From a virus: a DNA stretch of 39,707 bases. Below are positions 2,505 through 35,866 of this stretch, piece after piece. The translations under genes and the position numbers were made by a program. Below the pieces are notes generated by a model. The model saw only the letters and a program-made list of their open reading frames with translations, made no database searches and was not told where the DNA came from. The stretch is taken from the UHGV virus genome UHGV-0130034, one strand, 5' to 3'. Within the stretch, counting starts at the first letter, position 1. Each line of letters starts with the position of its first letter.

Positions 2505-3407
2505 TCAGTAGTTATGTACTGAAGGAGGTAATTCTTTATTCTTAAGTCTCATCCATGCGGAAAGATTCGTTGGTCCGTCTGGCTCATTAATATCAACATC
2601 TCGTGTGTGGTTTATTAAAACGTCTCTCGCCATTCCGATAACATACGAGAACTCATGACCGTAGTCGTAGCATCTGCCGGAATAGTTCGATTGAATTTGT
2701 TTTAGCGCCGGATACAGTTCGCGGAATAATGCCTGTGAGCGGTTGGCATAATCCCATAACCATACAAGGCTGTTTGCTTCTTTTGCAGAAAGCTCGTTGG
2801 TTTTCTTCTCTTGTTTGCCAATGAACTCGCCTTCAAGCACTACCCTGTGGATGTACTCTACTGCTTGCGGTATCTGAGATGAATCAAGCTCTTCAATACT
2901 TTCCACGTTGAAACGCTGATGAATCATTGCATAAGCTTCTGGGTACATTAGATGCTTTTTGCTGACTAGCATATTTACAGCATCACGAAGCGGAGTCCTG
3001 TCATCAACAGATGTTTTCTTACGTGCATTTTCTGCCTTTCCCTTTGTCCAGTAGTCATGCAGTACAGTAAAGCATTCTTCCTGGTACTGAATCAGTTTAT
3101 CGCGGATGTCAGCTCGAACTTTCTCAGGGTTGATGCTGAACAGCCATCCATTTAACTTCTTCAAAGGAAGGCAGAGTAGCTTACGAAGCTTCCCATCAGC
3201 GGCAACCATATTCATATGAATACAGTTGAACTTATCTAGTTGTTTCATAAGTTTTTGTTGCTGAGTACCCCAACTCATTCCAAGGTTTTCAACGATTGGC
3301 TTCATCGCAACGTATGCAACTCCGGCAGCCATGGCGGTGATAATTTGCTGACCGTTGAATGGTACGTAAGAGGTGTTCACTGCTTCTAAAATTGCTATAC
3401 TATTCAT
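2505..3407 (-). CDS. ant: Antirepressor Ant (start placed at [11 protein letters not shown], internal to the longer ORF)
   Basis: Lies downstream of arc in the immI operon; N-terminal Ant-like sequence; the 22-codon upstream extension is rejected. Confidence 0.8.
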
Positions 3408-3475
3408 GTTGGTTTTTCTCCACGGATTTACTGACAACCGAAGCCCTGACTGTTCCCGCAGTTGGGGCTTCAACT

Positions 3476-3637
3476 TTACGCGCCAATGCGCCCTTCCTTC
3501 TTAAAGCTTTCCATTACTCTCTGATAAATCTCAGAGTTAACAGACCGACCATTCTCTTCCGCCACCTTGCGTACCAAATCTAATACTTCTTTAGGCCACC
3601 GCAAATTGAACTGCGGCATCTTGCTCATTCCTTTCAT
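3476..3637 (-). CDS. arc: Arc repressor (53 aa)
   Basis: [53 protein letters not shown] is near-identical to recalled P22 Arc; the ORF-track N-terminal extension overlaps the Arc operator and is rejected. Confidence 0.95.
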
Positions 3638-3652
3638 ATTCACCTCACAATA

Positions 3653-3671
3653 TAGGTCCACCGTGGACCTA
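3653..3671. promoter_or_regulatory. Mnt operator (perfect palindrome TAGGTCCACCGTGGACCTA)
   Basis: Perfect 19-bp palindrome between the divergent arc and mnt genes, as in the P22 immI region. Confidence 0.85.
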
Positions 3672-3679
3672 TTGAGAAT

Positions 3680-3700
3680 ATAGTAGAGTGCTTCTATCAT
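3680..3700. promoter_or_regulatory. Arc operator (ATAGTAGAGTGCTTCTATCAT) overlapping Pant
   Basis: 21-bp symmetric site matching the recalled P22 Arc operator, located upstream of arc. Confidence 0.85.
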
Positions 3701-3727
3701 GTCAATACACTAACTTGGAGTGATGGC

Positions 3728-3979
3728 ATGGCTAGAGATGATCCGCACTTTAACTTCCGTATGCCTATGGAAGTAAGGGAGAAATTAAAATTCAGGGCGG
3801 AGGCGAATGGGAGATCAATGAACTCCGAGTTGTTACAAATCGTCCAAGATGCTCTATCAAAACCATCGCCTGTGACTGGATATCGCGACGATGCAGAACG
3901 ACTCGCTGATGAGCAGTCAGAGCTTGTTAAGAAGATGGTGTTTGATACGCTGAAGGATTTGTACAAAAAACCCACCTGA
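3728..3979 (+). CDS. mnt: Mnt repressor
   Basis: MARDDPHFNFRMPMEVREKLKFRAEANGRSMNSELLQIVQDALSKPSPVTGYR... is near-identical to recalled P22 Mnt. Confidence 0.95.
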   Translation: MARDDPHFNFRMPMEVREKLKFRAEANGRSMNSELLQIVQDALSKPSPVTGYRDDAERLADEQSELVKKMVFDTLKDLYKKPT

Positions 3980-23185: not shown

Positions 23186-23369
23186 CTCTTTCACTCCATC
23201 CGCGATGAACCATGAGAACGTCGTTGACGATGGCGTGCATTTTCCCGTCTTTATCATCAACGTATTTTCTGACCGTACCGCGACTACATTTCAGTCTGCG
23301 TGCTACTTCTGTCTGGTTTCCGTATGCTTCAACGAGCATGTCTGGAATGGTTTTTACTGAGAACGTCAT
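23163..23369 (-). CDS. ninH: NinH
   Basis: [68 protein letters not shown] matches recalled lambda NinH. Confidence 0.9.
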
Positions 23370-23977
23370 GCGGCCTCACTTCTGCTATTTCGCAGGTCTT
23401 TGAGTTTCTGTTGGTACTCTGCCTTGATCGCCTTGCACTCTTCGATAGTCCAGCGATGGCGGTTATGGTTTGATTCGATTTCGTCTACTGCTTCCTGCCC
23501 GATGCGGCTAATCAGTTCGACGCGATACGGAACGAGATTTCCGCTTTTGTGCTGGTTGCACACCACGCATTGCTTGTGAATATTGCGTTCATCAAATCGG
23601 AGTTGAGGTGCCGCAGCAGTTGTCCGGTAATGTCCGGCATCCCACTGAGCAGACGTGATCGTTCCGCACGAGATACATGGTAAGTCGCGGTCTCTTTCTC
23701 TGATGAAGGCGTTTACGGCTTGTTGGGATTGTTTAATCCAGTAACTGCGGGGCTTTAAGGCGAGTTTTCGAATCTTCAGTTTATCTTTCTGTTTCTGCTC
23801 CTCTCGTCGTCGTTTCTTCTCTGCTGCTTTTTCCGCTTTTTCGCGTTCTTTGCTTCGTCGTTCGAGTGCTATCTTGGTTCCACACTCTGGAGAGCACCAC
23901 CACTGATTAGCGAATGCAGGGTGAAACCATTCCCGGCATTCATCGTTTTTACATCGTCTTCGCGCTGGTTTAGCCAT
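23366..23977 (-). CDS. ninG: NinG (Rap-like recombination protein)
   Basis: Cys-rich, basic Lys/Arg/Glu tract; 203 aa; position as lambda ninG. Confidence 0.85.
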
Positions 23978-24246
23978 TATGGTTCGCTCCAGTAATTCTC
24001 AATTGCAGCAGCCATTCTCTGCATCCACTCAGCCAGCTTTAACGCGGCTTCTCTTTCAGAACCACATTTAGGGAAATCCTTCATTTCCATGCTGGCCTTA
24101 TATGTTCTGAATGCCAGGTCTCCGGTAATAACCAACTCCTGATCAAGCACCGAGCGTTTATTCCGGTGTTGAACGTAATAGACAGATTCAGTCCGCATTT
24201 CTTCTCTGTCTTTTTTGAAGGAAATAAGCTCAGAGAAATCACTCAT
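23977..24246 (-). CDS. Hypothetical nin-region protein (89 aa)
   Basis: ORF coupled to ninF (ATGAGTGA overlap) and ninG; no lambda counterpart recalled. Confidence 0.6.
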
Positions 24247-24409
24247 CGTCTTCTTCCTCGTACATTGAGCTATTCGGATCGCTCATCAGTTCTGCGCAGC
24301 AGTGCTCACATACGTGAACTTCCAGCACATGCAGCTTCTGACCGCAGTTAGCGCACGTTAAAGCTCGCTCGACGCTTTCTTGTTCGTAACTTCGATTTGG
24401 GTCAATCAC
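24239..24409 (-). CDS. ninF: NinF (56 aa, GTG start; absent from the ORF track)
   Basis: Manual translation [57 protein letters not shown] matches recalled lambda NinF. Confidence 0.8.
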
Positions 24410-24588
24410 CTTGTATTCCTCGCACGTTCTCTAAGCCACCGGATATCCCACAGGTGAGCCGTGTAATTGAGGGTTTTTACGTCAGATTCTTTTGGGACTG
24501 GCTTGCGTTTATTTCTGGAGCGTTTCGTTGGAAGGTATTTGCAGTTTTCGCAGATGATGTCGGTGATACTTCGTCGCTGTCGTCTCAT
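24406..24588 (-). CDS. ninE: NinE (start at [10 protein letters not shown])
   Basis: [56 protein letters not shown] matches recalled lambda NinE. Confidence 0.9.
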
Positions 24589-25112
24589 GCCGCCCTCCTG
24601 ACGCCCTGCCCGATCGCCATCAATGCCGCTTTGGATACGGTAGTAAACATCCGTCGAGGACTGATGAACGGTCGCCAAATCAGCAGCATGGAGCCTTTGC
24701 TGTTTCCCTTCTTCTCCAGCCCTGTCGATGGTTCGATAAAATTAATCCGTCCATCAGTGATAATCCGAACTTCGTCGACACTCTCCAGAGCCTTGCTGAA
24801 CCATCCGACTGACATATCCTCTGGCACAAGCATAACTACCGTCTGTCGCTGTTGTATGCACTGCTCAGCTGCTTTTTCCACCCACGGCCTGATATTGCTG
24901 TACGGTGGGTTATTCCAGATTGCACCGTGGCTTATCCACTCAGAATTGAGTGCGTCGTCGGCCTCAGTTAGCCAGTGAGCGCACAGAGCATTTTTGTCGC
25001 TCGCAGCTGAATCCAGCCAGAATCCAAACTCAATATCCAGCGCATCAAAAAGCCAAAGCGGCGTTTGCCAGCAGTCCTTGTCGTGTGCTGGCGTATTTGA
25101 TTTGATAGTCAT
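24585..25112 (-). CDS. Phage orphan DNA N6-adenine methyltransferase (Dam-like)
   Basis: NPPY motif ([10 protein letters not shown]); occupies the ninC/ninD position; ATGA start overlap with ninB stop. Confidence 0.75.
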
Positions 25113-25549
25113 GCAGCCCTGTCTCCCCATCTCGCTTTCCACTCCAGAGCCAGTCGCGCTTCGTCTGACCACTTAACGCCACGCTCTGTACCGAATGCCT
25201 GTATAAGCTCTAATAGCTCCGCAAATTCGCCTACACGCATCCTGCTGGTTGACTGGCCTATTACCACAAAGCCATTCCCGGCAAGGTTAGGAACAACATC
25301 CTGCTGCTTTAATGCTGCGGTAAACACACACTTCCAGCTTTCTGCATCCAGCCAGCGACCATGCCATTCAACCTGACGAGAGACGTCACCTAAGCAGGCC
25401 CATAGCTTCCTGTTTTGGTCTAAGCTGCGGTTGCGTTCCTGAATGGTTACTACGATTGGTTTGGTTGGGTCTGGAAGGATTTGCTGTACTGCGTGAATAG
25501 CGTTTTGCTGATGTGCTGGAGATCGAATTTCAAAGGTTAGTTTTTTCAT
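25109..25549 (-). CDS. ninB: NinB (Orf-like recombination mediator); start at MKKLTFEIRS
   Basis: MKKLTFEIRSPAHQQNAIHAVQQILPDPTKPIVVTIQERNRSLDQNRKLWACLGDVSRQVEWHGRWLD... matches recalled lambda NinB. Confidence 0.95.
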   Translation of the reverse strand: MKKLTFEIRSPAHQQNAIHAVQQILPDPTKPIVVTIQERNRSLDQNRKLWACLGDVSRQVEWHGRWLDAESWKCVFTAALKQQDVVPNLAGNGFVVIGQSTSRMRVGEFAELLELIQAFGTERGVKWSDEARLALEWKARWGDRAA

Positions 25550-25626
25550 GACTTCCCTCTCCCCCAAATAAAAAGGCCTGCGATTACCAGCAGGCCTGTT
25601 ATTAGCTCAGTGATGTAGATGGTCAT

Positions 25627-27507
25627 TTAATACTCCGTCACGTTTTCCTGTCGCCACGCCTCGTCATATTCAGATTTCGGCATATTGGCGATGTAGCTAT
25701 ATGGAGTTCCTGATTCAAGTTGCAGGAACTGGTGCGATTGCTCGTCAAGGAACAACGGGACACCACCTTCCCAACCTTCGCCGTTACGTTGTTTTTCAAG
25801 CATCAAAACAGATGCCGGAGATGCCAGTAGCTGTTCGTCCTTCTCTGACATTTTTTCACCACTCTGAACTCTCTGTAACGCTCTCTCGCGAGCCTTGTTA
25901 CGCCATATGATGAAAAGGTTGTCTGTCAGGTCTGTTATCGCTCCAGAGCCTTTTACGTCCATTTTCCCGGTTGGTTTTTCTTCGCTGTCTCCTTTTCGCG
26001 AGTGAGTAACGAGAATGACGTGGGAGTTTGTTTTGTTTTTGAAGTCGCAAATCGAGTCAACAAACGCCTTCTGCCCGTTATAGTCATCGTCGCCTATGCC
26101 ACATTTCATCAGGCTGTCGATGATGAATAACTGGATGCCGTATCGGCGGCGAGCGTAGTCGAATATTTCGATCAGCCTGTCGGCTTTCGCCGTTCCGGTC
26201 AGGCCAAACACCCAAAGTCTTTCGTCATAAAATTTAAATGCAGAGTCAATTTCCAGCACTGGCGGCATCTTGCAGCACGTCGCCTGACGGGTAAGGCGCT
26301 TAAGGAGAATACCAGGCTTCAGCTCAAGTGACGCGATGCACGTCTTCACACCCTGACGCATTGCCTCAAGTGCCATATGCCCGACAACCTCCGTTTTTCC
26401 GTGACCGTTCACACCATTGACCAGCGTCAACTCGGCCTCACGGAACTGGAATTTATCTGCCAGAGATTCCCACGGTGGATTAAACAGATACTGCTGCTTG
26501 CCGTAGAAAGCGTTGATAGTGTCCTGGTAAAACTCTCGTGCGCTGTAGAGTTCTTCAGGGTCGAAGTATGATGCCGTGCCGATGTACTGCCAGATTTCAT
26601 CCTCGGTAACACCGTTCATCAGGCATTCGTTGATGTCTTTGTACGGCAGAGTAACAAGACGGCAACGATGTTCACCGAGTCGGCTTGCGATTTCCCTTGC
26701 GGCTTCACGACCAACATCATCAACGTCCATCGAGATGAATATTTCCTCAAACCTGTCGAGGTTGTGATACTCAAACTCAATCCACTGTTGCTTAGCACCT
26801 TTCCCGCCACCAAACGGCACGGATAACGCCGAGATGCCGTATTGCGCATAGCTCATACAATCAATTTCGCCTTCGCAAAGTACAACCGCCCTCACGCCAG
26901 CGTCCAGAGCCTGCCATCCGAACAGACAAGGTTCGCAATCACCTTCTGCCATAATGACTTTCTTCCCGTCCGGGCGCTCAGTGCTGATTCGCTTGACCTG
27001 CAACAACTCACCATCGCGTTTGTACGGAAGCACCAGTGCATCAAGTTCTCGTTCTCCATTCCACACCTTGCCGCTGACAACCTCGTAGCGCTTTACGACT
27101 TCTGGCGATATGCCACGCGATTGCAAGTACTCAAGATGGGATTCTGTTCTGGTAACGTAGCGGGCGATTTTCTTGCGATCAGGTCTGGAGAATTTCTTCT
27201 CACGTTTGGCATCGAAATGGTGATCGTCATCCTTGATACCGAGAAATGCTTTCGCTTCCTGCATAGCCTGATGCAGGTTAATTCCACGACATGCCATCCA
27301 CAAATCAAGCATGTCACCGCCGTCTCCCTCAGCGAAATCAGCCCATTTTTTCTTGCCGCTAAGGTTGACCTTAAGGCTGTTTCCCTTGTCGCCGTTGACG
27401 TTACCGGCAACCCACTCATGCCCCTCTTTCTTGCCGTTTGGCAACAGGTGCGGAGCCACCCTGTCAACCTGCGCCCAAAGCAGGTCGCTGAGTTCACTTG
27501 GCGTCAT
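25627..27507 (-). CDS. Bifunctional replicative primase-helicase (Toprim-like central region plus P-loop helicase C-terminus)
   Basis: 626 aa; Walker A-like GVNGHGKT, acidic Toprim-like EGEID/DVDD motifs; directly downstream of the O-like initiator. Confidence 0.75.
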   Translation of the reverse strand: MTPSELSDLLWAQVDRVAPHLLPNGKKEGHEWVAGNVNGDKGNSLKVNLSGKKKWADFAEGDGGDMLDLWMACRGINLHQAMQEAKAFLGIKDDDHHFDAKREKKFSRPDRKKIARYVTRTESHLEYLQSRGISPEVVKRYEVVSGKVWNGERELDALVLPYKRDGELLQVKRISTERPDGKKVIMAEGDCEPCLFGWQALDAGVRAVVLCEGEIDCMSYAQYGISALSVPFGGGKGAKQQWIEFEYHNLDRFEEIFISMDVDDVGREAAREIASRLGEHRCRLVTLPYKDINECLMNGVTEDEIWQYIGTASYFDPEELYSAREFYQDTINAFYGKQQYLFNPPWESLADKFQFREAELTLVNGVNGHGKTEVVGHMALEAMRQGVKTCIASLELKPGILLKRLTRQATCCKMPPVLEIDSAFKFYDERLWVFGLTGTAKADRLIEIFDYARRRYGIQLFIIDSLMKCGIGDDDYNGQKAFVDSICDFKNKTNSHVILVTHSRKGDSEEKPTGKMDVKGSGAITDLTDNLFIIWRNKARERALQRVQSGEKMSEKDEQLLASPASVLMLEKQRNGEGWEGGVPLFLDEQSHQFLQLESGTPYSYIANMPKSEYDEAWRQENVTEY

Positions 27508-27614
27508 GATTCCCTCAGATTGAGATTTTTAAACCAGAAATCGACAAACGAAATACTTAACCAACCGTGGTTATAACCAGCGACCAGTAGCGATTTGATT
27601 TTTGATTTCATGGT

Positions 27615-28475
27615 TCACCTGTCGAAAAACACGTAGCCAGTTTTCGATACGGTGATTGCGGATGATGGTTTGGATTGTGGTTGAATAGTTTCTGGCTTCT
27701 CGTCGTTCCAGCGTTGACCGTTCAGGTAGCTCGATGGTAACAACCTGTCGAATCCGAACTGCTTACCATTCCTGCATGCGATGTCTTCTGCCAGCATCGT
27801 GGCAAACTCTCTTGCCGTACCCCTGGTAGTTTTACGCCATTCCCTGAACTGTGTTCTGAATGCCGAAGCTGCGTTTTTCTTCCCGGCTTTCCGCATGCCT
27901 GCACACCAGAATATTTCCTCGAATGCCTTGTCGGTTTCTTCGTGACGGTCATGTGATTTTTCACACTCCGTCCGAACACTTTCGGACATAGTGTTTTTAT
28001 TATTTCTTTTTTCTTTTGTAATAGTTTCTTTTGTGTGTCCCTGTTTTGGTGACAGCGCTGTCACCGTTTTGGTGACACTTTTTGTCACCAATGCAGTGAC
28101 ATTATCACCAGAGTAGTGACACCCTTCTATTTGCCATTCCTCGATGTTCTTGTTAGGCCCGATTTGCTGGCCTTCGCGAAGGATAACCTTCATCGCGATA
28201 AGCTCATTCTTGGCCTTGTTTACCTTCTGTCTTGGCAGCCTGGTAATTTGAGCTAACTGACTATCAGAGATGCGATCCATCTTTTTACCGTAGCCGTATG
28301 TTTTACGGCATATGGCGTGGGCAACCTTGCTCTGATTTTTCGTTAAATCTGCGCCGATAAGCTCTTCATACAGGGCATTTGCAAGACGGGTATAACCATC
28401 TTCAACTTCTGCCACACGACGCTCCACAGGCCGTTGTGAAGGCCTTAAATGTGTTACGGTTGCAAGATTACTCAT
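27615..28475 (-). CDS. O: Replication initiator O (lambda O-like N-terminal domain)
   Basis: DGY.RL.N.L.E...GADLTK.Q.KV...I.RKTYG..K.MDRI.DSQL..IT.LP...N.AK.EL..M.....G...GPNKNI.EW pattern shared with recalled lambda O; iterons inside the gene. Confidence 0.85.
27992..28124. promoter_or_regulatory. Replication origin inside the O gene: four inverted-repeat iterons (GGTGACA...TGTCACC type) next to an AT-rich tract
   Basis: ggtgacagcgctgtcacc (28048-28065), ggtgacactttttgtcacc (28071-28089), gcagtgacattatcacc (28093-28109), gtagtgacaccc (28113-28124); AT-rich 27992-28030. Confidence 0.75.
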
Positions 28476-28614
28476 GACCTTTCTCCTTCTGCATCAGCTT
28501 CACTTTTTCCAACTCAGCCCGGAATCGACCAGGCTGCTTGAAGCTGGACAGGAAGCGATCACGTAGTATGTGTTTGTGAATTTTGTCCTGGTAAGGACTG
28601 AGTTGTTTTGTCAT
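28468..28614 (-). CDS. Possible small ORF (48 aa) between cII and O
   Basis: GGAG 5 nt upstream of ATG at 28614; encodes [21 protein letters not shown]...; stop overlaps O start. Confidence 0.3.
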
Positions 28615-28646
28615 AATGACTCCTGTTGATAGATCCAGTAATGACC

Positions 28647-28940
28647 TCAGAACTCCATCTGGATTTGTTCAGAACGCTCGGTTGCCGCCGGGCGTTTTTT
28701 ATTGGTGAGAATCGAAGCAACTTGTCGTGCCAATCGAGCCATATCGTCGTCAACGACGCCCCATTCAAGAACAGCAAGCAGCATTGAGAACTTTGGAATC
28801 CAATCCCTCTTCCACCTGCTGATCTGCGACTTATCAACTCCCACAGCTTCCGCTGTCTTCTCAGTTCCAAGCATTGCGATTTTGTTAAGCAACGCACTCT
28901 CGATTCGTAGAGCCTCGTTGCGTTTGTTTGCACGAACCAT
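28647..28940 (-). CDS. cII: Transcriptional activator CII
   Basis: [96 protein letters not shown] is near-identical to recalled lambda CII. Confidence 0.95.
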
Positions 28941-29019
28941 ATGTCAGTATTTCCTTAGATAACAATTGATTGAAGGTATGCAAATAAATGCATACACCAT
29001 AGGTGTGGTTTAATTTGAT

Positions 29020-29051
29020 GCCCTTTTTCAGGGCTGGGATGTGTAAGAGCT
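29020..29051 (-). promoter_or_regulatory. nutR (boxA AGCTCTTACAC, boxB GCCCTGAAAAAGGGC)
   Basis: Minus strand reads AGCTCTTACACATCCCAGCCCTGAAAAAGGGCATC, matching recalled lambda nutR; lies between cro and cII. Confidence 0.85.
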
Positions 29052-29059
29052 GGAATGTC

Positions 29060-29275
29060 TTAAGCGGCTTTGTGTTCCGGCGGGAACACGTCATCAAGAC
29101 TGACTTTTGCGCCTAACTTGTTTAGGCACTCAACAAGAGCACGGCATGTTTTAAGGTCTGGGAAGCGACGACCAGATTCCCAATGTCCGATAGCTCCCTG
29201 TGTGCATCCAACTGCCTTAGCAAGTGTTGTTTGAGAGATATTCAGTGACTCTCGATATTTTCGTAGGTTGCTCAT
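29060..29275 (-). CDS. cro: Cro-like repressor (XRE-family HTH, 71 aa; start at MSNLRKYRES)
   Basis: HTH ISQTTLAKAVGCTQGAIGHWESG; divergent from cI across the OR region. Confidence 0.8.
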   Translation of the reverse strand: MSNLRKYRESLNISQTTLAKAVGCTQGAIGHWESGRRFPDLKTCRALVECLNKLGAKVSLDDVFPPEHKAA

Positions 29276-29386
29276 ATGCCCTCCATAGTAACCATGAAAC
29301 AATAATACGATATGTACTTTTAGAATGCAAACAAAAAATACATCTTGTGCATGGATGGTTTTAGTACAGAGCGTAATAATAAGGGT
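29276..29386. promoter_or_regulatory. OR/PR/PRM region between cro and cI
   Basis: Divergent intergenic region with partial repeats (aatacgatatgtact, aatacatcttgtgca) related to the OL palindrome AGTACAAATTGTACT. Confidence 0.6.
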
Positions 29387-30046
29387 ATGAAAATGAAATG
29401 GTATGAACTGGCTAGATCCAGAATGAAAGAGCTCGGCATAACTCAAGAGAAGTTAGCCGAAGAGCTTGGTATGACGCAGGGTGGAATTGGTCACTGGTTG
29501 CGCGGATCTCGTCATCCATCTCTTGACGAGATTGGTGTGGTGTTTAAATACCTTGGTATTGATAACGTCTCATTCAACCACGACGGTACATTTTCACCTG
29601 TTGGCGAATACTCATCTGCCCCCGTTAAAAAACAATATGAGTACCCTGTTTTTTCTCATGTTCAGGCCGGGATGTTCTCGCCTGAGCTTAGAACCTTTAC
29701 CAAAGGTGATGCGGAGAGATGGGTCAGCACAACCAAAAAAGCCAGTGATTGTGCGTTCTGGCTTGAAGTTGAAGGTAATTCCATGACCGCGCCAACAGGA
29801 TCCAAGCCAAGCTTTCCTGACGGGATGTTAATTCTCGTTGACCCTGAGCAGGCTGTTGAGCCAGGTGATTTCTGCATAGCCAGACTTGGTGGTGACGAGT
29901 TTACCTTCAAGAAACTGATCAGGGATAGCGGTCAGGTGTTCCTACAGCCACTAAACCCGCAATATCCAATGATTCCATGCAATGATAGCTGTTCCGTAGT
30001 AGGGAAAGTTATCGCCAGCCAGTGGCCTGAAGAGACATTTAGTTAA
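29387..30046 (+). CDS. cI: CI repressor: non-lambda N-terminal DNA-binding domain fused to a lambda-type C-terminal S24/LexA-like domain
   Basis: C-terminal ~140 aa ([53 protein letters not shown]...[11 protein letters not shown]) near-identical to recalled lambda CI; N-terminal HTH differs. Confidence 0.9.
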
Positions 30047-30078
30047 CAGCCTCACAACTCTAAAACACACAACAATAA

Positions 30079-30106
30079 CCCGACCTTAGCGTCGGGTTTT
30101 CTTTTT
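30079..30106 (+). terminator. Rho-independent terminator after cI
   Basis: Hairpin cccgac-cttagc-gtcggg followed by ttttcttttt. Confidence 0.7.
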
Positions 30107-30171
30107 CCAAAATATAAACCCATTAAATACAAAGCGTTATAAAAAACTAATTATATTTAGAACATTTTGTA

Positions 30172-30200
30172 TTGACTCGATAAAGTACAAATTGTACTAT
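30172..30200 (+). promoter_or_regulatory. PL promoter (-35 TTGACT, 17-bp spacer, -10 TACTAT) overlapped by operator palindrome AGTACAAATTGTACT
   Basis: -35 at 30172-30177, -10 at 30195-30200; perfect 15-bp palindrome at 30184-30198; upstream of nutL and N. Confidence 0.7.
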
Positions 30201-30239
30201 TTAGCCATCAGCAGGACGTACTAACCACCATGAAGGTGA

Positions 30240-30270
30240 CGCTCTTAAAAATTAAGCCCTGAAGAAGGGC
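30240..30270 (+). promoter_or_regulatory. nutL (boxA CGCTCTTA, boxB GCCCTGAAGAAGGGC)
   Basis: cgctcttaaaaattaagccctgaagaagggc matches recalled lambda nutL. Confidence 0.9.
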
Positions 30271-30380
30271 AGCATTCAAAGCAGAAGGCTTTGAGTAGCG
30301 CGAAATGCAGCTGCAAGACAGCAACCGTGGAGATAAGCATCACGGCGCGTTACTCAAAGCTAACTGACAGGAGAATCCAG

Positions 30381-30707
30381 ATGGATGCACAAACACGCCG
30401 CCGCGAACGTCGCGCAGAGAAACAGGCTCAATGGAAAGCAGCAAATCCCCTGTTGGTTGGGGTAAGCGCAAAGCCAGTTAACCGCCCTATTCTCTCGCTG
30501 AATCGCAAACCGAAATCACGAGTAGAAAGCGCACTGAATCCGATAGACCTTACGGTACTGGCTGAATACCACGAACAGATTGAAAGCAACCTGCAGCGTA
30601 TTGAGCGCAAGAATCAGCGCACATGGTACAGCAAGCCACGCAGTGAAATGGGTGTGACTTGTGTTGGTCGCCAGAAAATGAAATTAGGCAGCAAACCACT
30701 TATTTGA
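30381..30707 (+). CDS. N: Antiterminator N (start at MDAQTRRRERR)
   Basis: MDAQTRRRERRAEKQAQWKAANPLLVGVSAKPVNRPILSLNRKPKSRVESALNPIDLTVLAEYH.QIESNLQRIERKNQRTWYSKP matches recalled lambda N. Confidence 0.95.
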   Translation: MDAQTRRRERRAEKQAQWKAANPLLVGVSAKPVNRPILSLNRKPKSRVESALNPIDLTVLAEYHEQIESNLQRIERKNQRTWYSKPRSEMGVTCVGRQKMKLGSKPLI

Positions 30708-30715
30708 GGTGAGAT

Positions 30716-30967
30716 ATGGAATTTCATGAAAGTGCGATTTATGATTTTCGCGCTAACGCAAATTCAGTAAAACCACAGCCAATTGCAGTTCTTTTTAAAA
30801 CAATGGGGGCGTGGGCTGTTTTATGCTTCGCCTCTGATGACACTGACGCAAGAATGGCAATAGGCCAAGAGATGGAGATGGACCCGACAAACGATGAATT
30901 CATAATTTATGGCGCTCCATCTAATTACTTACTTGATACCTGCAGCATTTACAACAAGGCTGCCTGA
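30716..30967 (+). CDS. Hypothetical early protein (83 aa) in the ral-equivalent position
   Basis: ORF immediately after N on the pL transcript; no similarity recognised. Confidence 0.55.
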   Translation: MEFHESAIYDFRANANSVKPQPIAVLFKTMGAWAVLCFASDDTDARMAIGQEMEMDPTNDEFIIYGAPSNYLLDTCSIYNKAA

Positions 30968-31103
30968 TGGTGGCCTTTATTTTTGGCACAAACAACAGAA
31001 TAAACACTGCACTGTGTATTCATTCCAACGAGTGAATACACGGAGCAATGTCGCTCGTAACCAAACAGGAGCCGACTTGTTCTGATTATTGGAAATCTTC
31101 TTT

Positions 31104-31128
31104 GCCCTCCAGTGTGAGGGCCTTTTTA
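31104..31128 (+). terminator. Rho-independent terminator (tL1-like)
   Basis: Hairpin gccctc-cagtgt-gagggc followed by ctttttat. Confidence 0.65.
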
Positions 31129-31193
31129 TATGCATACCAATAACGCTTCACTCGAGGCGTTTTCGTTATGCAATCAAATATAAGGAGTTACCC

Positions 31194-31328
31194 ATGATGC
31201 ACTTTCAGCTCGCGGGTAGCGGCGTCATGTCCGCTTTCTACCCGCACGAATCTGAATTATCACGCCGAGTTAAACAATTAATCAGAGCAGCAAAGAAACA
31301 ACTGGAGGCGTTATGCGCAATGAAATAG
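31194..31328 (+). CDS. cIII: CIII-like protein (44 aa)
   Basis: AAGGAG RBS 6 nt upstream; M.HFQLAGSGVMSAFYPHESELSRRVKQL resembles recalled lambda CIII (AIAGWPVAGCPSESLLERITRKL). Confidence 0.55.
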   Translation: MMHFQLAGSGVMSAFYPHESELSRRVKQLIRAAKKQLEALCAMK

Positions 31329-31465
31329 CCATCAATCACCAGATGCTTCGTGCAGCACAAAACAAAGCAGTAATAGCCAGATTTATTGGTGATTCAAAAA
31401 TGTGGCTTGAAGCAAATAAAGCGATGAAATCAGCTATCAACCTTCCGTGGTATCGCAGGAAATGA
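31313..31465 (+). CDS. kil: Kil-like protein (50 aa)
   Basis: GGAGG RBS 5 nt upstream; AVIARFIGDSKMWLEANKAMKSAI resembles the recalled lambda Kil motif (IATFIGDEKMFREAV); overlaps cIII stop. Confidence 0.45.
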   Translation: MRNEIAINHQMLRAAQNKAVIARFIGDSKMWLEANKAMKSAINLPWYRRK

Positions 31466-31632
31466 GTTTTACAGATAACTGGTCAGACGAAGAATTCATT
31501 CGTCAGATGAAAGAATTAATCGGTAACGAAGGAGATATTCATGTCACTTGCAACCACAGTGAAGGAGAGCAAGTTACAGAGACGCATGTACACACAGCAG
31601 GCGTTAATGTATCGCCAGAAGGGAGATCGTGA
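31462..31632 (+). CDS. Possible small acidic protein (56 aa), ATGA-coupled to kil
   Basis: ATG overlaps the kil stop; overlaps the better-supported 31541-31711 ORF in another frame. Confidence 0.3.
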   Translation: MSFTDNWSDEEFIRQMKELIGNEGDIHVTCNHSEGEQVTETHVHTAGVNVSPEGRS

Positions 31633-31711
31633 AGGTGTTCGCGTATTTTTAAATGCGGCAAAGACTGAAGTATTAAATCAGCGTTATTTCCTTGGGCCAT
31701 GTCCATTCTGA
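31541..31711 (+). CDS. Arf-like small protein (56 aa) directly upstream of erf
   Basis: Strong SD GAAGGAG 6 nt upstream; position corresponds to P22 arf. Confidence 0.5.
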   Translation: MSLATTVKESKLQRRMYTQQALMYRQKGDREGVRVFLNAAKTEVLNQRYFLGPCPF

Positions 31712-31721
31712 GAACAAACAT

Positions 31722-32327
31722 ATGAGCAAAGAATTTTACGCAAGACTGGCAGCTATTCAGGAGAATCTGAACGCGCCAAAGAATCAGTACAACTCATTCG
31801 GCAAATATAAATACAGAAGCTGCGAAGACATTCTTGAAGGCGTTAAGCCGTTACTGAATGGTCTGTTTTTATCAATCAGCGATGAAGTTGTGTTGATTGG
31901 TGATCGGTATTACGTGAAAGCCACGGCAACTATTACCGATGGCGAAAACAGTCATACGGCAACCGCTCTTGCACGAGAGGAAGAAAGCAAGAAAGGAATG
32001 GATTCTGCACAAGTTACGGGAGCTACAAGCTCTTATGCACGCAAATATTGCCTCAATGGTTTGTTCGGCATTGATGATGCGAAAGATGCAGATACAGACG
32101 AGCATAAACATCAGCAGAACGCAGCAGCAAAGCAGTCAAAACCATCACCTACACCTGAACAGGTTCTAAAAGCATTCACTGACGCAGCATTGCAGAAAAA
32201 CACCGTGGAAGAGCTTAAACAGGCGTTCGCCAAAGCGTGGAAGATGCTCGAAGGCACACCGGAGCAGCACAAAGCGCAGGACGTTTACAACATCAGACGA
32301 GACGAATTAGAAGGAGCGGCTGCTTAA
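31722..32327 (+). CDS. erf: Erf single-strand annealing recombinase (start at MSKEFYARL)
   Basis: MSKEFYARLA.IQE.LNAPKNQYNSFGKYKYRSCEDILEGVKPLL.GLFLSISDE.VLIGDRYYVKATATITDGENSH matches recalled P22 Erf. Confidence 0.9.
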   Translation: MSKEFYARLAAIQENLNAPKNQYNSFGKYKYRSCEDILEGVKPLLNGLFLSISDEVVLIGDRYYVKATATITDGENSHTATALAREEESKKGMDSAQVTGATSSYARKYCLNGLFGIDDAKDADTDEHKHQQNAAAKQSKPSPTPEQVLKAFTDAALQKNTVEELKQAFAKAWKMLEGTPEQHKAQDVYNIRRDELEGAAA

Positions 32328-32710
32328 TGGCACATTCGATTACTGTAAGACTAAACAAGCCCGCAAGAGAGTTTCAGGCCGGGGAAAATATCGGATTCAA
32401 CATCCGTGCTGGCGTTCAGTATTACGATCGCCAGACAAAAAAGAAAGAATGGACAAACTACAGCGCCGTTGTATTTGCCAAGCAGGGATCGCAAGCGGAT
32501 TACTACCGTAGTGTTCTTGTTGAAGGTGGCATTGTGGAAATTACCGGAGAAAACATCAGGGTTGATGTTTATCAGGGGCAAAATGGTCAATCAATCACTC
32601 TTGAATTACTGAATGCAAAGATTGGATTTGCAACTTCAGGAAACAGCCAACAGCAACAAAGTAGCAATCATCAAAATCATCCTGAATACGACGATTCAAT
32701 TCCCTTCTAA
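32327..32710 (+). CDS. SSB-like protein with C-terminal acidic tail ending DDSIPF
   Basis: 127 aa; Gln-rich linker then EYDDSIPF, resembling the bacterial SSB C-terminal tip (DDDIPF); GGAG RBS; TAATG coupling with erf. Confidence 0.65.
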   Translation: MAHSITVRLNKPAREFQAGENIGFNIRAGVQYYDRQTKKKEWTNYSAVVFAKQGSQADYYRSVLVEGGIVEITGENIRVDVYQGQNGQSITLELLNAKIGFATSGNSQQQQSSNHQNHPEYDDSIPF

Positions 32711-32733
32711 ATTAGCAACATAAGGATTCCATT

Positions 32734-33030
32734 ATGCCTGCGCCTCTGTATGGTGCGGATGACCCGCGCCGCTGTTCCGGCAATTCCGTATCGGAGGTGC
32801 TGGATAAATTCAGAAAAAACTACGACCTGATAATGTCTCTACCGCAGGAAACGAAAGAGGAAAAGGAATTTCGCCACTGTATATGGCTTGCAGAGAAAGA
32901 AGAACGCGAGCGAATTTACCAGACATCAATCCGACCATTCCGCAAAGCCACATATACCCACTTCCCTGAATATATCGACCCGCGCCTGCGTAATTACCGC
33001 TCACGCTATGGCGCTATCAGTAATGACTGA
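32734..33030 (+). CDS. Hypothetical protein (98 aa) in the abc-gene position (possible anti-RecBCD Abc-like)
   Basis: Position after erf/ssb as P22 abc genes; sequence not confidently recognised. Confidence 0.5.
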   Translation: MPAPLYGADDPRRCSGNSVSEVLDKFRKNYDLIMSLPQETKEEKEFRHCIWLAEKEERERIYQTSIRPFRKATYTHFPEYIDPRLRNYRSRYGAISND

Positions 33031-33040
33031 GGAATTAACA

Positions 33041-33331
33041 ATGAAAACAATGAAGCTAAACATCGACCTCGGAAAATACGTTATTACCGGAACCAAACAC
33101 GATCTGATTCTTAGCGAAAGAGGAATTATCAAAGAAGGCGAGAATGCAGGGAAAGAAACACTAAGCCGTATCGGTTATTACAGCAAGTTTGAGCATCTGG
33201 TTAAAGAATTATGCAACCGTGAAATCCTGTTATCTCAGGCGCGGACGCTACAGGATATTCAGCAGCATATCGAAGCTTTAGGTATGTCACTTAGCATGGC
33301 TATTGACCAGTTCGTGGAGAGTAAATCATGA
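33041..33331 (+). CDS. Hypothetical protein (96 aa)
   Basis: GAGG RBS; start at [13 protein letters not shown]; coupled operon. Confidence 0.6.
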
Positions 33332-33492
33332 GAGGACTTGCATACAATCCCGGCATTCTTCCGGCAGAAATGATTATTCGCCAACGCGTAAAGCCAATGC
33401 CATCGAGAGAGGAATTACTTAAGAGAAATAGTTTCGGTTCTGTTAATGACAACAAATATCTGAATGCGATGTTGCGGAGTGGGAAGAAATGA
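33328..33492 (+). CDS. Hypothetical small protein (54 aa; absent from the ORF track)
   Basis: ATGA overlap with upstream and downstream genes; GGAGAG upstream; encodes [54 protein letters not shown]. Confidence 0.45.
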
Positions 33493-34070
33493 AACAAATG
33501 ACACTAATTGAGATGGATGGATTTCTGAAAGGTAAATGCATCCCCCGAGATTTAAAGGTTAACGAAACAAACGCTGAATATCTGGTGCGTAAGTTCGGTG
33601 AACTTGAATCAAAACTGGAAACGGCGTTGCGGGAGTGCCGTTCTGCTGGAATCACGATTGATAACCTTGAGGCCAAGTACGCGGCACTGGCAGCGGAGAA
33701 TGCGGGGCTGAAGTCTGGCGCTATGGACGAAATCAAGGTTATCAACCGTGGAGGGCAGGCATATTGCGTAAAAGATGGAGTGCAAGTTAATCCCATGTAT
33801 GCAAGAGGGTGGAATGACTATCGCGCAAAGTCTCTGCAATCAGACACCCCCGCCACCGACGCTTTCCTGGCTGAAGTACGAGCGCAGGGGGTGGATGCTG
33901 CTATAGAAGCTGCAAAAAATCTGGTGGCCCAAGAATATGAGTATAAGGATTTCAAAGCGGCGCAGAGTGATTGCTGTATGCGCCCTGGTTCAGACCTGGT
34001 AGGGAAGGTTGAAATGACTGAGTGGTTAGTTGACTTTGCTGCCCAGCTTCGCAAAGGAGGCAACCAGTGA
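33489..34070 (+). CDS. Hypothetical protein (193 aa)
   Basis: Coupled ORF; predicted coiled-coil region. Confidence 0.6.
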
Positions 34071-34711
34071 GTAACCGTTTTTACATGATGTGCTTGCGTG
34101 AAACTGTGGGTAATAACGCTTCATTCCATTGCCATAACGGCAATGGTTACAGTTCTGATATCGATCGCGCTCATGTTTACACGCTGGAAGAAGCCCAAAA
34201 AGCCTGGAATTGTGGTCGAGATATCGATCAGCCTGTTTGCGCTGATAGCGTGGATGCAATGGCTGTGTGGCACGTTGATTGCCAGTACATCCCTACAGAA
34301 AGCCTGATTGAGTCAGATTGCACTGCGTATGTGGCCTACAAAAAAGGTAGCTGGAACGGCAACGATGTTTACTGGCTTCAACACGGTGGATTGCCAACAG
34401 ATGACTTCAGTAAAGCAACCATCTTTAGCGTCGCCAACAAAAACGAACCAGGAATAGTTTGGTTGCCATTTTCCATTGCTGATGCAGCAAAGCGGCGGAC
34501 GTTCAATATCAATAATTTCAACCGCAGAACAATGGTTCAGATCGCAGGTTTAGTCATGCCTGACTGGTTGAAAAAGCAAAACAGAAGAAAGAAGTCACGA
34601 AGCGGGAAGGTGCGCTGGAATTGTCCGCATTGCGGAAAAATCACCTGGCAGTATAACCCATATGATTTTGAAGGCTGTTGTGATTACAACTGTGAGGGAT
34701 GGCGAGAATGA
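34067..34711 (+). CDS. Hypothetical protein with C-terminal Cys-rich zinc-finger-like motif (214 aa)
   Basis: CPHCG...CCDYNC cluster at the C-terminus; coupled ORF. Confidence 0.6.
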   Translation: MSNRFYMMCLRETVGNNASFHCHNGNGYSSDIDRAHVYTLEEAQKAWNCGRDIDQPVCADSVDAMAVWHVDCQYIPTESLIESDCTAYVAYKKGSWNGNDVYWLQHGGLPTDDFSKATIFSVANKNEPGIVWLPFSIADAAKRRTFNINNFNRRTMVQIAGLVMPDWLKKQNRRKKSRSGKVRWNCPHCGKITWQYNPYDFEGCCDYNCEGWRE

Positions 34712-35656: not shown

Positions 35657-35866
35657 ATGGCTATCGCTGCAAGTTACACCATGCATCTCTATTGTGACTG
35701 CCTCCAGTGTACAGATGGCAAATATAAGTCGCCAGACTTCGGTGAGTATATCGGTACGTCATGGACTGGCTGTGCAAAAGAGGCCCGTAAAGACGGGTGG
35801 CGAATAAGTAAAGACAAAACGCGTGCTTTTGCGCCCGGGCATAAAGTTTTGAGGGTTAACAAATGA
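35657..35866 (+). CDS. Hypothetical Cys-rich small protein (69 aa)
   Basis: AAAGGAG RBS; CDCLQC motif. Confidence 0.55.
   Translation: MAIAASYTMHLYCDCLQCTDGKYKSPDFGEYIGTSWTGCAKEARKDGWRISKDKTRAFAPGHKVLRVNK

Follow-up and report, generated by a model that had tools for sequence, protein, structure and literature searches.

Does the immunity region at positions 29060-30270 of the virus genome UHGV-0130034 carry an immunity specificity of its own, or does it belong to a type that is already known? The window, that is, the whole stretch of DNA that was analysed, comprises 39,707 nucleotides. A sequence-only reading of it had described a mosaic: a Cro, a CI DNA-binding domain and operators of non-lambda type, set among N/nutL, nutR/cII and a CI C-terminal domain of lambda type. 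From this it had implied a distinct specificity. The region is an ordinary mosaic prophage switch of a type already known from Shiga-toxin (Stx) phages such as VT2-Sakai. Judging from its sequence, it very probably serves a P22-like E. coli prophage as its primary immunity (immC) module, in which VT2-Sakai-type specificity has been recombined between lambda-type modules. Sequence identities, domain content, operator positions, motif enrichment and conservation were established directly.

Lambda-type segments and mosaic junctions

The segments that align with the lambda reference (NC_001416) by blastn are the following:

28607-29053: rutA/nutR through cII, 97.8% identical to lambda
29636-30040: the 3' two-thirds of cI, 93.8%
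30069-30104: a hairpin placed after rexB in lambda, 88.9% to lambda 35799-35834
30206-30293: PL +1 through nutL, 97.7%
30355-30682: N, 93.0%

Lambda homology detectable by blastn is absent from 29060-29635 (cro, OR and the cI N-terminal domain) and 30105-30205 (OL/PL), and the sliding identity to lambda in these two stretches is 23-60%. One junction lies by nutR at about 29053-29059 and another, at the DNA level, inside cI at about 29630-29640. The mosaic junctions coincide with functional boundaries: they fall past the cro stop codon beside nutR boxA, in the CI inter-domain linker, after cI and at the PL transcription start. The mosaic that had been described is therefore borne out by blastn and sliding identity, and each of the elements listed with it was found at or near its proposed place. 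The lambda-type elements flanking the switch are:

28647-28940, minus strand: cII, 97 aa, lambda type (Pfam Phage_CII, E 1.7e-48), 96/97 identical to lambda CII
28918-28931, plus strand: CII-binding repeat of PRE, TTGCGTTTGTTTGC, inside cII and pointing toward cI
29020-29051, minus strand: nutR by lambda alignment, boxB at 29020-29034 and boxA at 29044-29051
30240-30270, plus strand: nutL, boxA CGCTCTTA at 30240-30247 and boxB GCCCTGAAGAAGGGC at 30256-30270, both identical to lambda
30381-30707, plus strand: N, 108 aa, lambda type (Pfam N36, E 1.5e-26), 98/107 identical to lambda N

The boxB of nutR, GCCCTGAAAAAGGGC, is identical to that of lambda, and its boxA, AGCTCTTA, agrees with the lambda boxA CGCTCTTA at seven of eight positions. 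The lambda N/nut antitermination set is complete, with the arginine-rich motif in N and boxA/boxB in both early transcripts. N, nutL, nutR, cII, PRE and the oop terminator hardly differ from their lambda counterparts, and the layout of divergent PR/PRM with three OR sites and of PL with three OL sites is also that of lambda. Unlike lambda, however, the region lacks rexAB, its OR-OL distance is about 0.85 kb and its N leader is partly replaced. An Rfam search of 28000-31500 at E<=0.1 gave no match.

CI, Cro and the predicted operators

The genes between the lambda-type flanks, with the hairpin that follows cI, are:

29060-29275, minus strand: cro, 71 aa, HTH_3/XRE type (Pfam HTH_3, E 1.4e-12)
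29393-30046, plus strand: cI, 217 aa; the alternative ATG at 29387 gives 219 aa
30077-30098, plus strand: terminator-like intrinsic hairpin 3' of cI (terminator scan), kin to the lambda post-rexB sequence

CI contains the Pfam domains HTH_3 (E 8.3e-11) and Peptidase_S24 (E 8.7e-29). Residues 1-81 constitute an HTH domain of the VT2-Sakai type, and residues 82-217 a lambda-type linker and Peptidase_S24 domain in which 133 of 136 amino acids are identical to lambda CI. The protein matches the lambda repressor in the PDB (3bdn) with E 2.2e-96, residues 1-81 match the lambda N-terminal domain marginally (E 0.0036), and the N-terminal arm of lambda CI is missing here. The cleavage site and the catalytic dyad are intact, Ala92-Gly93, Ser130 and Lys173 corresponding to lambda Ala112-Gly113, Ser150 and Lys193 (numbering with Met1), and from the near-identity of the C-terminal domain to that of lambda we infer RecA-stimulated autocleavage. 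Compared with the Stx1-phage CI, 210 of 217 residues are identical, including 78 of the first 81; the recognition helices are identical, and the three differences in the N-terminal domain lie elsewhere.

Cro is identical to the Cro of the Stx1 phage and of VT2-Sakai at 70 of 71 positions, but to lambda Cro at 18 of 60 in a global alignment. Its Pfam match is HTH_3 and not the lambda Cro family, that is, it is an all-helical HTH_3 protein whose fold is not that of lambda Cro. The recognition-helix motifs of the two regulators are parallel, TQGAIGHW in Cro and TQGGIGHW in CI. Smith et al. 2012 (PMC3430580) have described this repressor, with its lambda C-terminus and non-lambda N-terminus, as "CI2c", with "Cro4" as its partner; the same observation is credited to Fattah et al. 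2000. Outside the VT2-Sakai type, the nearest kin of the CI N-terminal domain are found in the Salmonella P22-like phages epsilon34, g341c, SPN9CC and L, whose repressors likewise reside in P22-like genomes. With only 52-54% identity over this domain, their specificity should differ from the one described here; for phage L, hetero-immunity with P22 is known (PMC8022706).

The promoters and the predicted operators, the latter given without strand and with mismatches counted against the degenerate pattern ARTACA-N3-TGTAYT, are:

29302-29331, minus strand: PR, TTTGCA-18-TATTAT or TTGCAT-17-TATTAT (promoter scan), driving cro, cII and the replication genes
29304-29318: OR1, AATACGATATGTACT, over the PR -10/spacer, 1 mismatch, 15/17 to the published VT2-Sakai OR1
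29337-29351: OR2, AATACATCTTGTGCA, just upstream of the PR -35, 2 mismatches, 15/17 to VT2-Sakai OR2
29352-29380, plus strand: putative PRM, TGGATG-17-AATAAT, read from the sequence, start predicted at about ATG 29387
29363-29377: OR3, AGTACAGAGCGTAAT, over the putative PRM spacer/-10, 16/17 to VT2-Sakai OR3
30126-30140: OL3, AATACAAAGCGTTAT, 3 mismatches and weak on the window alone, 16/17 to VT2-Sakai OL3
30159-30173: OL2, AGAACATTTTGTATT, abutting the PL -35, 1 mismatch, 15/17 to VT2-Sakai OL2
30172-30200, plus strand: PL, TTGACT-17-TACTAT (promoter scan)
30184-30198: OL1, AGTACAAATTGTACT, a perfect 15-bp palindrome (7+1+7) over the PL spacer/-10, 15/17 to VT2-Sakai OL1

The palindrome that had been proposed as an operator is thus present exactly, over the spacer and -10 of PL, as OL1. 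Homology, position and conservation point to all six sites as operators. The record of the Stx1-converting phage (AP005153) annotates six putative operators and putative promoters at homologous positions: PR corresponds to its 'putative major rightward promoter', the position of PRM to its 'putative maintenance promoter for CI', and OR2, centred about 43 bp before the ATG of cI at 29387, to one of its operators. PRM, with its weak -35, was not picked up by the consensus promoter scan. OR3 is invariant among the window, Dewey and the Stx1 phage, and the PL transcript starts inside the block CATCAGCAGGACG (30206-30218), which a three-way alignment shows to be common to lambda and the Stx phages.

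The half-site A(G/A)TACA differs from that of lambda, TATCACCGC, which does not occur with at most one mismatch in 27321-34238; a cryptic imm-lambda was rejected because the immunity region is without lambda operator half-sites. The centre-to-centre distances are 33 bp for OR1-OR2, 26 bp for OR2-OR3, 25 bp for OL1-OL2 and 33 bp for OL2-OL3, as against 24 and 23 bp in lambda, and pairwise cooperativity of the lambda kind is therefore an assumption.

Immunity type and alternative readings

Cro, the CI N-terminal domain and the operators belong to the immunity type of VT2-Sakai, the Stx1-converting phage, Stx2 phage II, Nil2, 1717 and 2851. The cro-OR-cI DNA is 93% identical to that of VT2-Sakai, the Stx1-converting phage, Stx2 phage II and Nil2, and each of the six operators shares 15-16 of 17 positions with the published oligonucleotide of the corresponding VT2-Sakai operator. 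Together with the agreement of Cro and of the CI N-terminal domain noted above, this contradicts the novelty implied by the sequence-only reading; in essence the type is already characterised, in the sense of sequenced, annotated and discussed. The searchable literature yielded no biochemical or genetic data, footprinting and EMSA included, for the cognate CI or Cro on these operators, and no functional data on Nil2 and phage 2851. The domain-level recombination that had been invoked is real, but it is ancestral to a large and widespread family rather than peculiar to this phage, because the hybrid CI, Cro and operators are common to the VT2-Sakai immunity type.

Identity with the classical 434 or P22 immunities was rejected: a PDB sequence search gave no match to the 434 repressor or 434 Cro, and the matches of Cro to P22 C2 were marginal (E about 0.006). 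The match to HK620 cI spans only 33 residues at 60%.

The region has in common with the VT2-Sakai type the PR/PRM/PL layout and a hybrid CI made of its own N-terminal domain and the lambda C-terminal domain. It differs in its flanks, which here are lambda-type N/nutL and nutR/cII, whereas the Stx phages carry an HK97-like N and an HK022-like CII that are 35% identical to those described here. Moreover, in the Stx phages additional ORFs, about 1.5 kb in all, separate cI from OL, while here OL directly follows cI; OL1 is a perfect palindrome here and not in VT2-Sakai; and the virion is P22-like and not of the Stx-phage type. The RefSeq VT2-Sakai cI has a stop codon within the recognition helix. 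Lambda CI bound VT2-Sakai operator oligonucleotides with apparent KDs of 3.7-6.4 uM (Sedhom & Solomon 2023), values that overlap lambda CI's weakest site, OR3 (3.07 uM).

That the palindrome and the degenerate copies arose by chance in intergenic DNA rich in AT, the true operators being elsewhere, is hardly credible. When three mismatches are allowed, the count is marginal (four found, 0.99 expected, reached by 3 of 100 shuffles), and OL3 itself is three mismatches away from the degenerate pattern. Nevertheless, the only sites with at most one mismatch in the 39.7 kb are OL1, OL2 and OR1, all within OR or OL, against 0.39 expected in shuffles, and five of the eight with at most two mismatches lie inside the two operator regions of about 75 bp each. 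Furthermore, the sites overlap the -10/spacer of PR and PL and correspond to the published VT2-Sakai operators, and homologous positions are conserved in phages with diverged flanking DNA: the OL half-sites, and OL3 among them, are conserved within DNA only 77% identical to the Stx phages. The same divergence, together with the 80-90% identity of the OR intergenic DNA (the most diverged part), might instead indicate an allele fully or partly hetero-immune to the Stx-phage version and hence a new immunity type. One or two of 17 positions differ per operator, OL1 is palindromic here alone of the two, and the proteins carry the substitutions D45S, E46D and V59I in CI and E49A in Cro. This is nonetheless very improbable: CI and Cro have the same recognition helices as in the Stx phages, the substituted CI residues come after helix 3, and the operator changes mostly concern the central spacer or half-site position 6, a position that varies within the six sites of a single phage anyway.

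Cross-immunity with lambda despite the different operators, which would make the specificity not truly 'distinct', is somewhat less improbable but still unlikely. It could arise by residual recognition through related helices (Q-x-G-x-G), for which the weak alignment of the N-terminal domains speaks, or by mixed oligomers through C-terminal domains that are near-identical to each other. A finding of cross-immunity between VT2-Sakai and lambda is attributed to Fattah et al. 2000 by Sedhom & Solomon 2023, and if that is right, the claim of a 'distinct' specificity has to be qualified; the micromolar KDs of lambda CI point the same way. Those KDs are, however, up to about 25-fold weaker than those of lambda CI on OR1 and OL1 (0.2-0.35 uM), OR and OL here are without the lambda half-site, and the stop codon in the RefSeq VT2-Sakai cI complicates the cross-immunity report. 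Because the C-terminal domain is nearly that of lambda while the DNA-binding domain reads different operators, CI could conceivably, though we consider it doubtful, assemble in polylysogens with imm-lambda repressors into mixed dimers, tetramers or octamers. Such oligomers would account for the second-hand cross-immunity report, and if they form, prophages that are formally hetero-immune would be partly cross-immune or have their induction coupled. In this reading the OL-OR loop of CI itself would be only about 0.85 kb long, with operator spacings of 33/26 bp, which are unusual.

Proposed regulation and distribution

A VT2-Sakai-type specificity between lambda-type modules most likely operates in the manner of the lambda CI/Cro switch; its binding, cooperativity, PRM activation, cleavage and Ant sensitivity are deduced. 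CI dimers would read the 15-17-bp operators A(G/A)TACA-N3-TGTA(C/T)T by means of the N-terminal helix-turn-helix and, on OR1/OR2 and OL1/OL2, would block PR and PL. At OR2, about 43 bp upstream of ATG 29387, the predicted PRM start, CI probably activates PRM, and at OR3 it probably shuts it off. The lambda-type C-terminal domain would provide dimerisation and pairwise cooperativity as well as RecA-stimulated self-cleavage, in which Ser130/Lys173 would cut at Ala92-Gly93. Cro, having the same TQGxIGHW recognition helix, would bind the operators of CI and bring about lytic commitment. Lambda-type N would act on nutL/nutR and lambda-type CII on PRE, neither depending on operator specificity.

A P22-type immI, reported by the sequence-only reading as a second regulatory circuit, is present at 2505-3976, as its Pfam domains confirm:

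2505-3473, minus strand: ant, Pfam P22_AR_N and P22_AR_C
3479-3637, minus strand: arc, Pfam Arc
3728-3976, plus strand: mnt, Pfam Repressor_Mnt

Comparison with the P22 proteins by tblastn gave identities of 98% for Arc and 97.6% for Mnt. Two sites between the divergent genes, a palindrome at 3653-3671 and a second one at 3680-3700, resemble Omnt and Oarc, respectively. The locus resembles P22 immI in having mnt, arc, ant and the Omnt-/Oarc-like sites, Ant with both P22_AR domains, but unlike in P22 it is paired with a VT2-Sakai-type CI in place of C2. Mnt, Arc and Ant may form a second, unlinked layer, in which the antirepressor could inactivate CI.

Of 5,426 complete E. coli genomes, 776 (about 1/7; 14%) carry the specificity core. 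The whole lambda-flanked arrangement is present in 81 genomes and four or five sequenced phages. The CI N-terminal domain is found at an identity of at least 95% in 63 phage records, and in none between 80 and 95%.

The value of the region as a discovery is small. The module represents textbook lambdoid mosaicism, and Stx phages have already been catalogued with its immunity type. In practice it helps annotation, by placing the phage in the VT2-Sakai (cI2c/cro4) immunity group. Homo-immunity with many Stx1/Stx2 prophages of E. coli O157 is then to be expected, which could influence superinfection and the acquisition of Stx phages by lysogens.

A mosaic early region with lambda-like flanks

The window is a P22-like mosaic E. 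coli phage or prophage, whose genes for portal, coat, gp10 and the tailspike head-binding part are of P22 type. The orientation of its early region is opposite to the standard lambda map, and the features concerned are the following:

2505-3976: P22-type immI (ant, arc, mnt)
28647-28940, minus strand: cII
29020-29051: nutR
29060-29275, minus strand: cro
29302-29380: OR, with PR (TTTGCA-18-TATTAT, minus strand) and putative PRM (TGGATG-17-AATAAT, 29352-29380)
29304-29318: OR1, overlapping PR -10 and spacer
29337-29351: OR2, immediately upstream of PR -35
29363-29377: OR3, overlapping putative PRM spacer and -10
29393-30046, plus strand: cI
30077-30098: terminator hairpin after cI, 88.9% identical to the sequence following lambda rexB
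30126-30200: OL, with PL (TTGACT-17-TACTAT)
30126-30140: OL3, upstream of OL2
30159-30173: OL2, abutting PL -35
30184-30198: OL1, overlapping PL spacer and -10
30240-30270: nutL
30381-30707, plus strand: N

By blastn, lambda is matched at 28607-29053 (nutR and cII, 97.8%), 29636-30040 (the 3' two-thirds of cI, 93.8%), 30206-30293 (PL +1 to nutL, 97.7%) and 30355-30682 (N, 93.0%), and no lambda match was obtained for cro, OR, the first 81 cI codons and OL/PL. Within cI, identity to lambda jumps from about 30-60% to 97% at about 29630-29656 (60-nt sliding comparison), and CI residues 82-217 are identical to lambda CI at 133 of 136 positions. The cII and N proteins are identical to those of lambda at 96/97 and 98/107 positions, respectively, with Phage_CII and the N36 arginine-rich peptide found by Pfam; boxA and boxB of nutL and boxB of nutR are unchanged. 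Pfam finds HTH_3 plus Peptidase_S24 in CI and only HTH_3 in Cro, so the latter is not a lambda-fold Cro. The sequence-only reading, a hybrid of lambda-like cII, N, nutL, nutR and CI C-terminal part with non-lambda Cro, CI N-terminal domain and operators, is thus accurate, and every element of the observation is borne out. The solved structure closest to Cro is PDB 28tn_A, an 82-aa "lambda repressor-like protein" (E 2.4e-16).

The mosaic junctions sit at module boundaries. The PL crossover coincides with a block common to lambda, Stx phages and the window, the 13-nt CATCAGCAGGACG at the PL transcription start (30206-30218), which is identical in the window, lambda and the Stx1-converting phage AP005153 and has unrelated flanks on at least one side in each pair, and is a plausible short-homology crossover point. 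The boxA of nutR (29044-29051, AGCTCTTA, 7/8 of lambda CGCTCTTA) sits at a recombination junction, adjoining the cro stop codon. The oop terminator hairpin of lambda is conserved at 28671-28698, as is the CII-binding repeat of PRE, TTGCGTTTGTTTGC, at 28918-28931, although the PRE -10 is CAGTAT instead of AAGTAT. The stretch from nutL to the ribosome-binding site of N (30294-30354) has 61 non-lambda nt where lambda has 109 nt, so that the PL-to-N leader is about 175 nt instead of about 222 nt; the part of the lambda leader with the RNase III-sensitive structure is not conserved. An 83-aa ORF without a Pfam match lies directly 3' of N (30716-30967). Since 30655-31131 is 97% identical to the DNA downstream of N in the Stx1 phage and VT2-Sakai, homology returns from lambda-like to Stx-phage-like near the N 3' end.

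The gap between cI and OL (30046-30126) contains neither rexA/rexB nor any other gene, the lambda-like hairpin alone being left. Because of the absence of the rex genes, the distance from OR to OL is short, about 0.85 kb, compared with about 2.3 kb in lambda and VT2-Sakai. The replication module (25627-28475), common to Sf101, mEp043 and HK544, encodes an O-like initiator (Phage_rep_O, 286 aa) and then a 626-aa Toprim/DnaB-like primase-helicase in the place of the lambda P gene.

Operators and the proposed switch

The palindrome AGTACAAATTGTACT, claimed to overlap the PL spacer and -10 with degenerate copies in OR, is exact at OL1, and all six sites, OR1, OR2 and OR3 included, fit A(G/A)TACA-N3-TGTA(C/T)T. 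In the 39.7-kb window, only OL1, OL2 and OR1 come within one mismatch of this pattern (n=3; 0.39 expected in shuffles), and 5/8 of the sites within two mismatches fall in the two operator regions. Half-site positions 4-5 (A, C) are invariant in 12/12 half-sites. The centre-to-centre spacings (OR, 33 and 26 bp; OL, 25 and 33 bp) differ from those of lambda (24 and 23 bp), so lambda-like pairwise cooperativity is an assumption only.

We infer all binding and regulatory steps of the switch. By homology with lambda, CI dimers on OR1/OR2 and OL1/OL2 would occlude PR and PL, and CI at OR2 would be placed for activation, and at OR3 for repression, of PRM, whose transcription would start at about ATG 29387. 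The lambda-type CI C-terminal domain should give dimerisation, cooperativity and RecA-stimulated self-cleavage because it keeps Ala92-Gly93, Ser130 and Lys173, and Cro should compete for the same operators through the TQGxIGHW helix common to both proteins. N/nut would act on RNA and CII/PRE on a promoter outside the operators; acting there, they would be compatible with any operator specificity, which explains why such mosaics are viable. The second circuit that had been proposed, immI, is present, with Omnt-like and Oarc-like sites between its divergent genes, and would add an antirepressor layer; P22 Ant reportedly inactivates several lambdoid repressors. Phage Dewey (23273-28023) has the same immC (cI/cro module) at 99.5%, with nothing annotated between tailspike and the genes for DNA transfer, so the pairing of immC with immI is not universal.

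Identity with the VT2-Sakai immunity type

The mosaic reading was right, but the distinct specificity drawn from it is no novelty and belongs to the VT2-Sakai (cI2c/cro4) immunity type. The cro-OR-cI segment (29060-30046) is 93% identical to AP005153, Stx2 phage II, Nil2, 2851, PA-series Stx2 phages and VT2-Sakai; Cro is identical to Stx-phage Cro at 70/71 positions and CI to Stx-phage CI at 210/217, with only three substitutions in the N-terminal domain and none in the recognition helix. The annotation of AP005153 has putative operators, three each in OR and OL, and putative PR, PRM and PL, all at exactly homologous positions. OL is merely 77% identical overall to the Stx phage, yet its half-sites are conserved, the pattern expected of real binding sites. 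The VT2-Sakai operators given by Sedhom & Solomon 2023 (PMC10742460, Table S1) agree with the six sites at 15-16/17 positions each. The repressor class, cI2c, was named in VT2-Sa, Stx2 phage II, YYZ-2008 and 1717, with lambda CI being 100% identical to it at the carboxy terminus but having a unique amino terminus, and with cro4 as the partner common to the same phages (Smith et al. 2012, PMC3430580); the observation on the termini is also credited to Fattah et al. 2000, as cited by Sedhom & Solomon (PMC10742460). Consequently, neither the "hybrid" repressor nor its operators are new to the literature. In the VT2-Sakai reference (NC_000902, 5901-6600), an in-frame TAG replaces the recognition-helix Gln codon (MT*GG), as already remarked by Smith et al. 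2012 (PMC3430580), whereas cI is intact in the window.

There is a low probability that this module and lambda do not differ completely in specificity, or that cross-talk occurs through the shared CI C-terminal domain, since cross-immunity between VT2-Sakai and lambda is reported second-hand from Fattah et al. 2000 and lambda CI binds VT2-Sakai operators in EMSA, at 3.7-6.4 uM compared with 0.2-0.35 uM on its own OR1/OL1 (Sedhom & Solomon, PMC10742460). The literature searches gave no footprinting, EMSA or genetic work on the cognate CI, and no CI-DNA structure exists for VT2-Sakai (PMC9803871).

Distribution of the type and of its arrangement

The CI N-terminal domain occurs at at least 95% identity in 63 phage records, and in none between 80 and 95%. 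Outside the type, the full-length relatives that come closest are repressors of Salmonella P22-like phages (epsilon34, g341c, SPN9CC, L; 52-54%). Among the classical immunities compared (L, HK620, 434, P22 C2 and lambda), L and HK620 gave nothing above about 61% to the CI N-terminal domain, and 434, P22 C2 and lambda gave no match or marginal ones in PDB searches. Of 5,426 complete E. coli genomes, 776 contain the specificity core (29060-29635: cro, OR and the N-terminal domain of cI) at 90% identity or more; the type is among the commonest in E. coli. Four sequenced phages, vB_EcoP-683R2, vB_EcoP-720R6, Dewey and Louie, have the region 29060-30270 at 99.3-99.6% identity, and phi458 has it at 97.6%. 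The whole lambda-flanked arrangement (28600-30720) is itself already in dozens of sequenced genomes (81 at at least 80% coverage, the best 99.9% identical).
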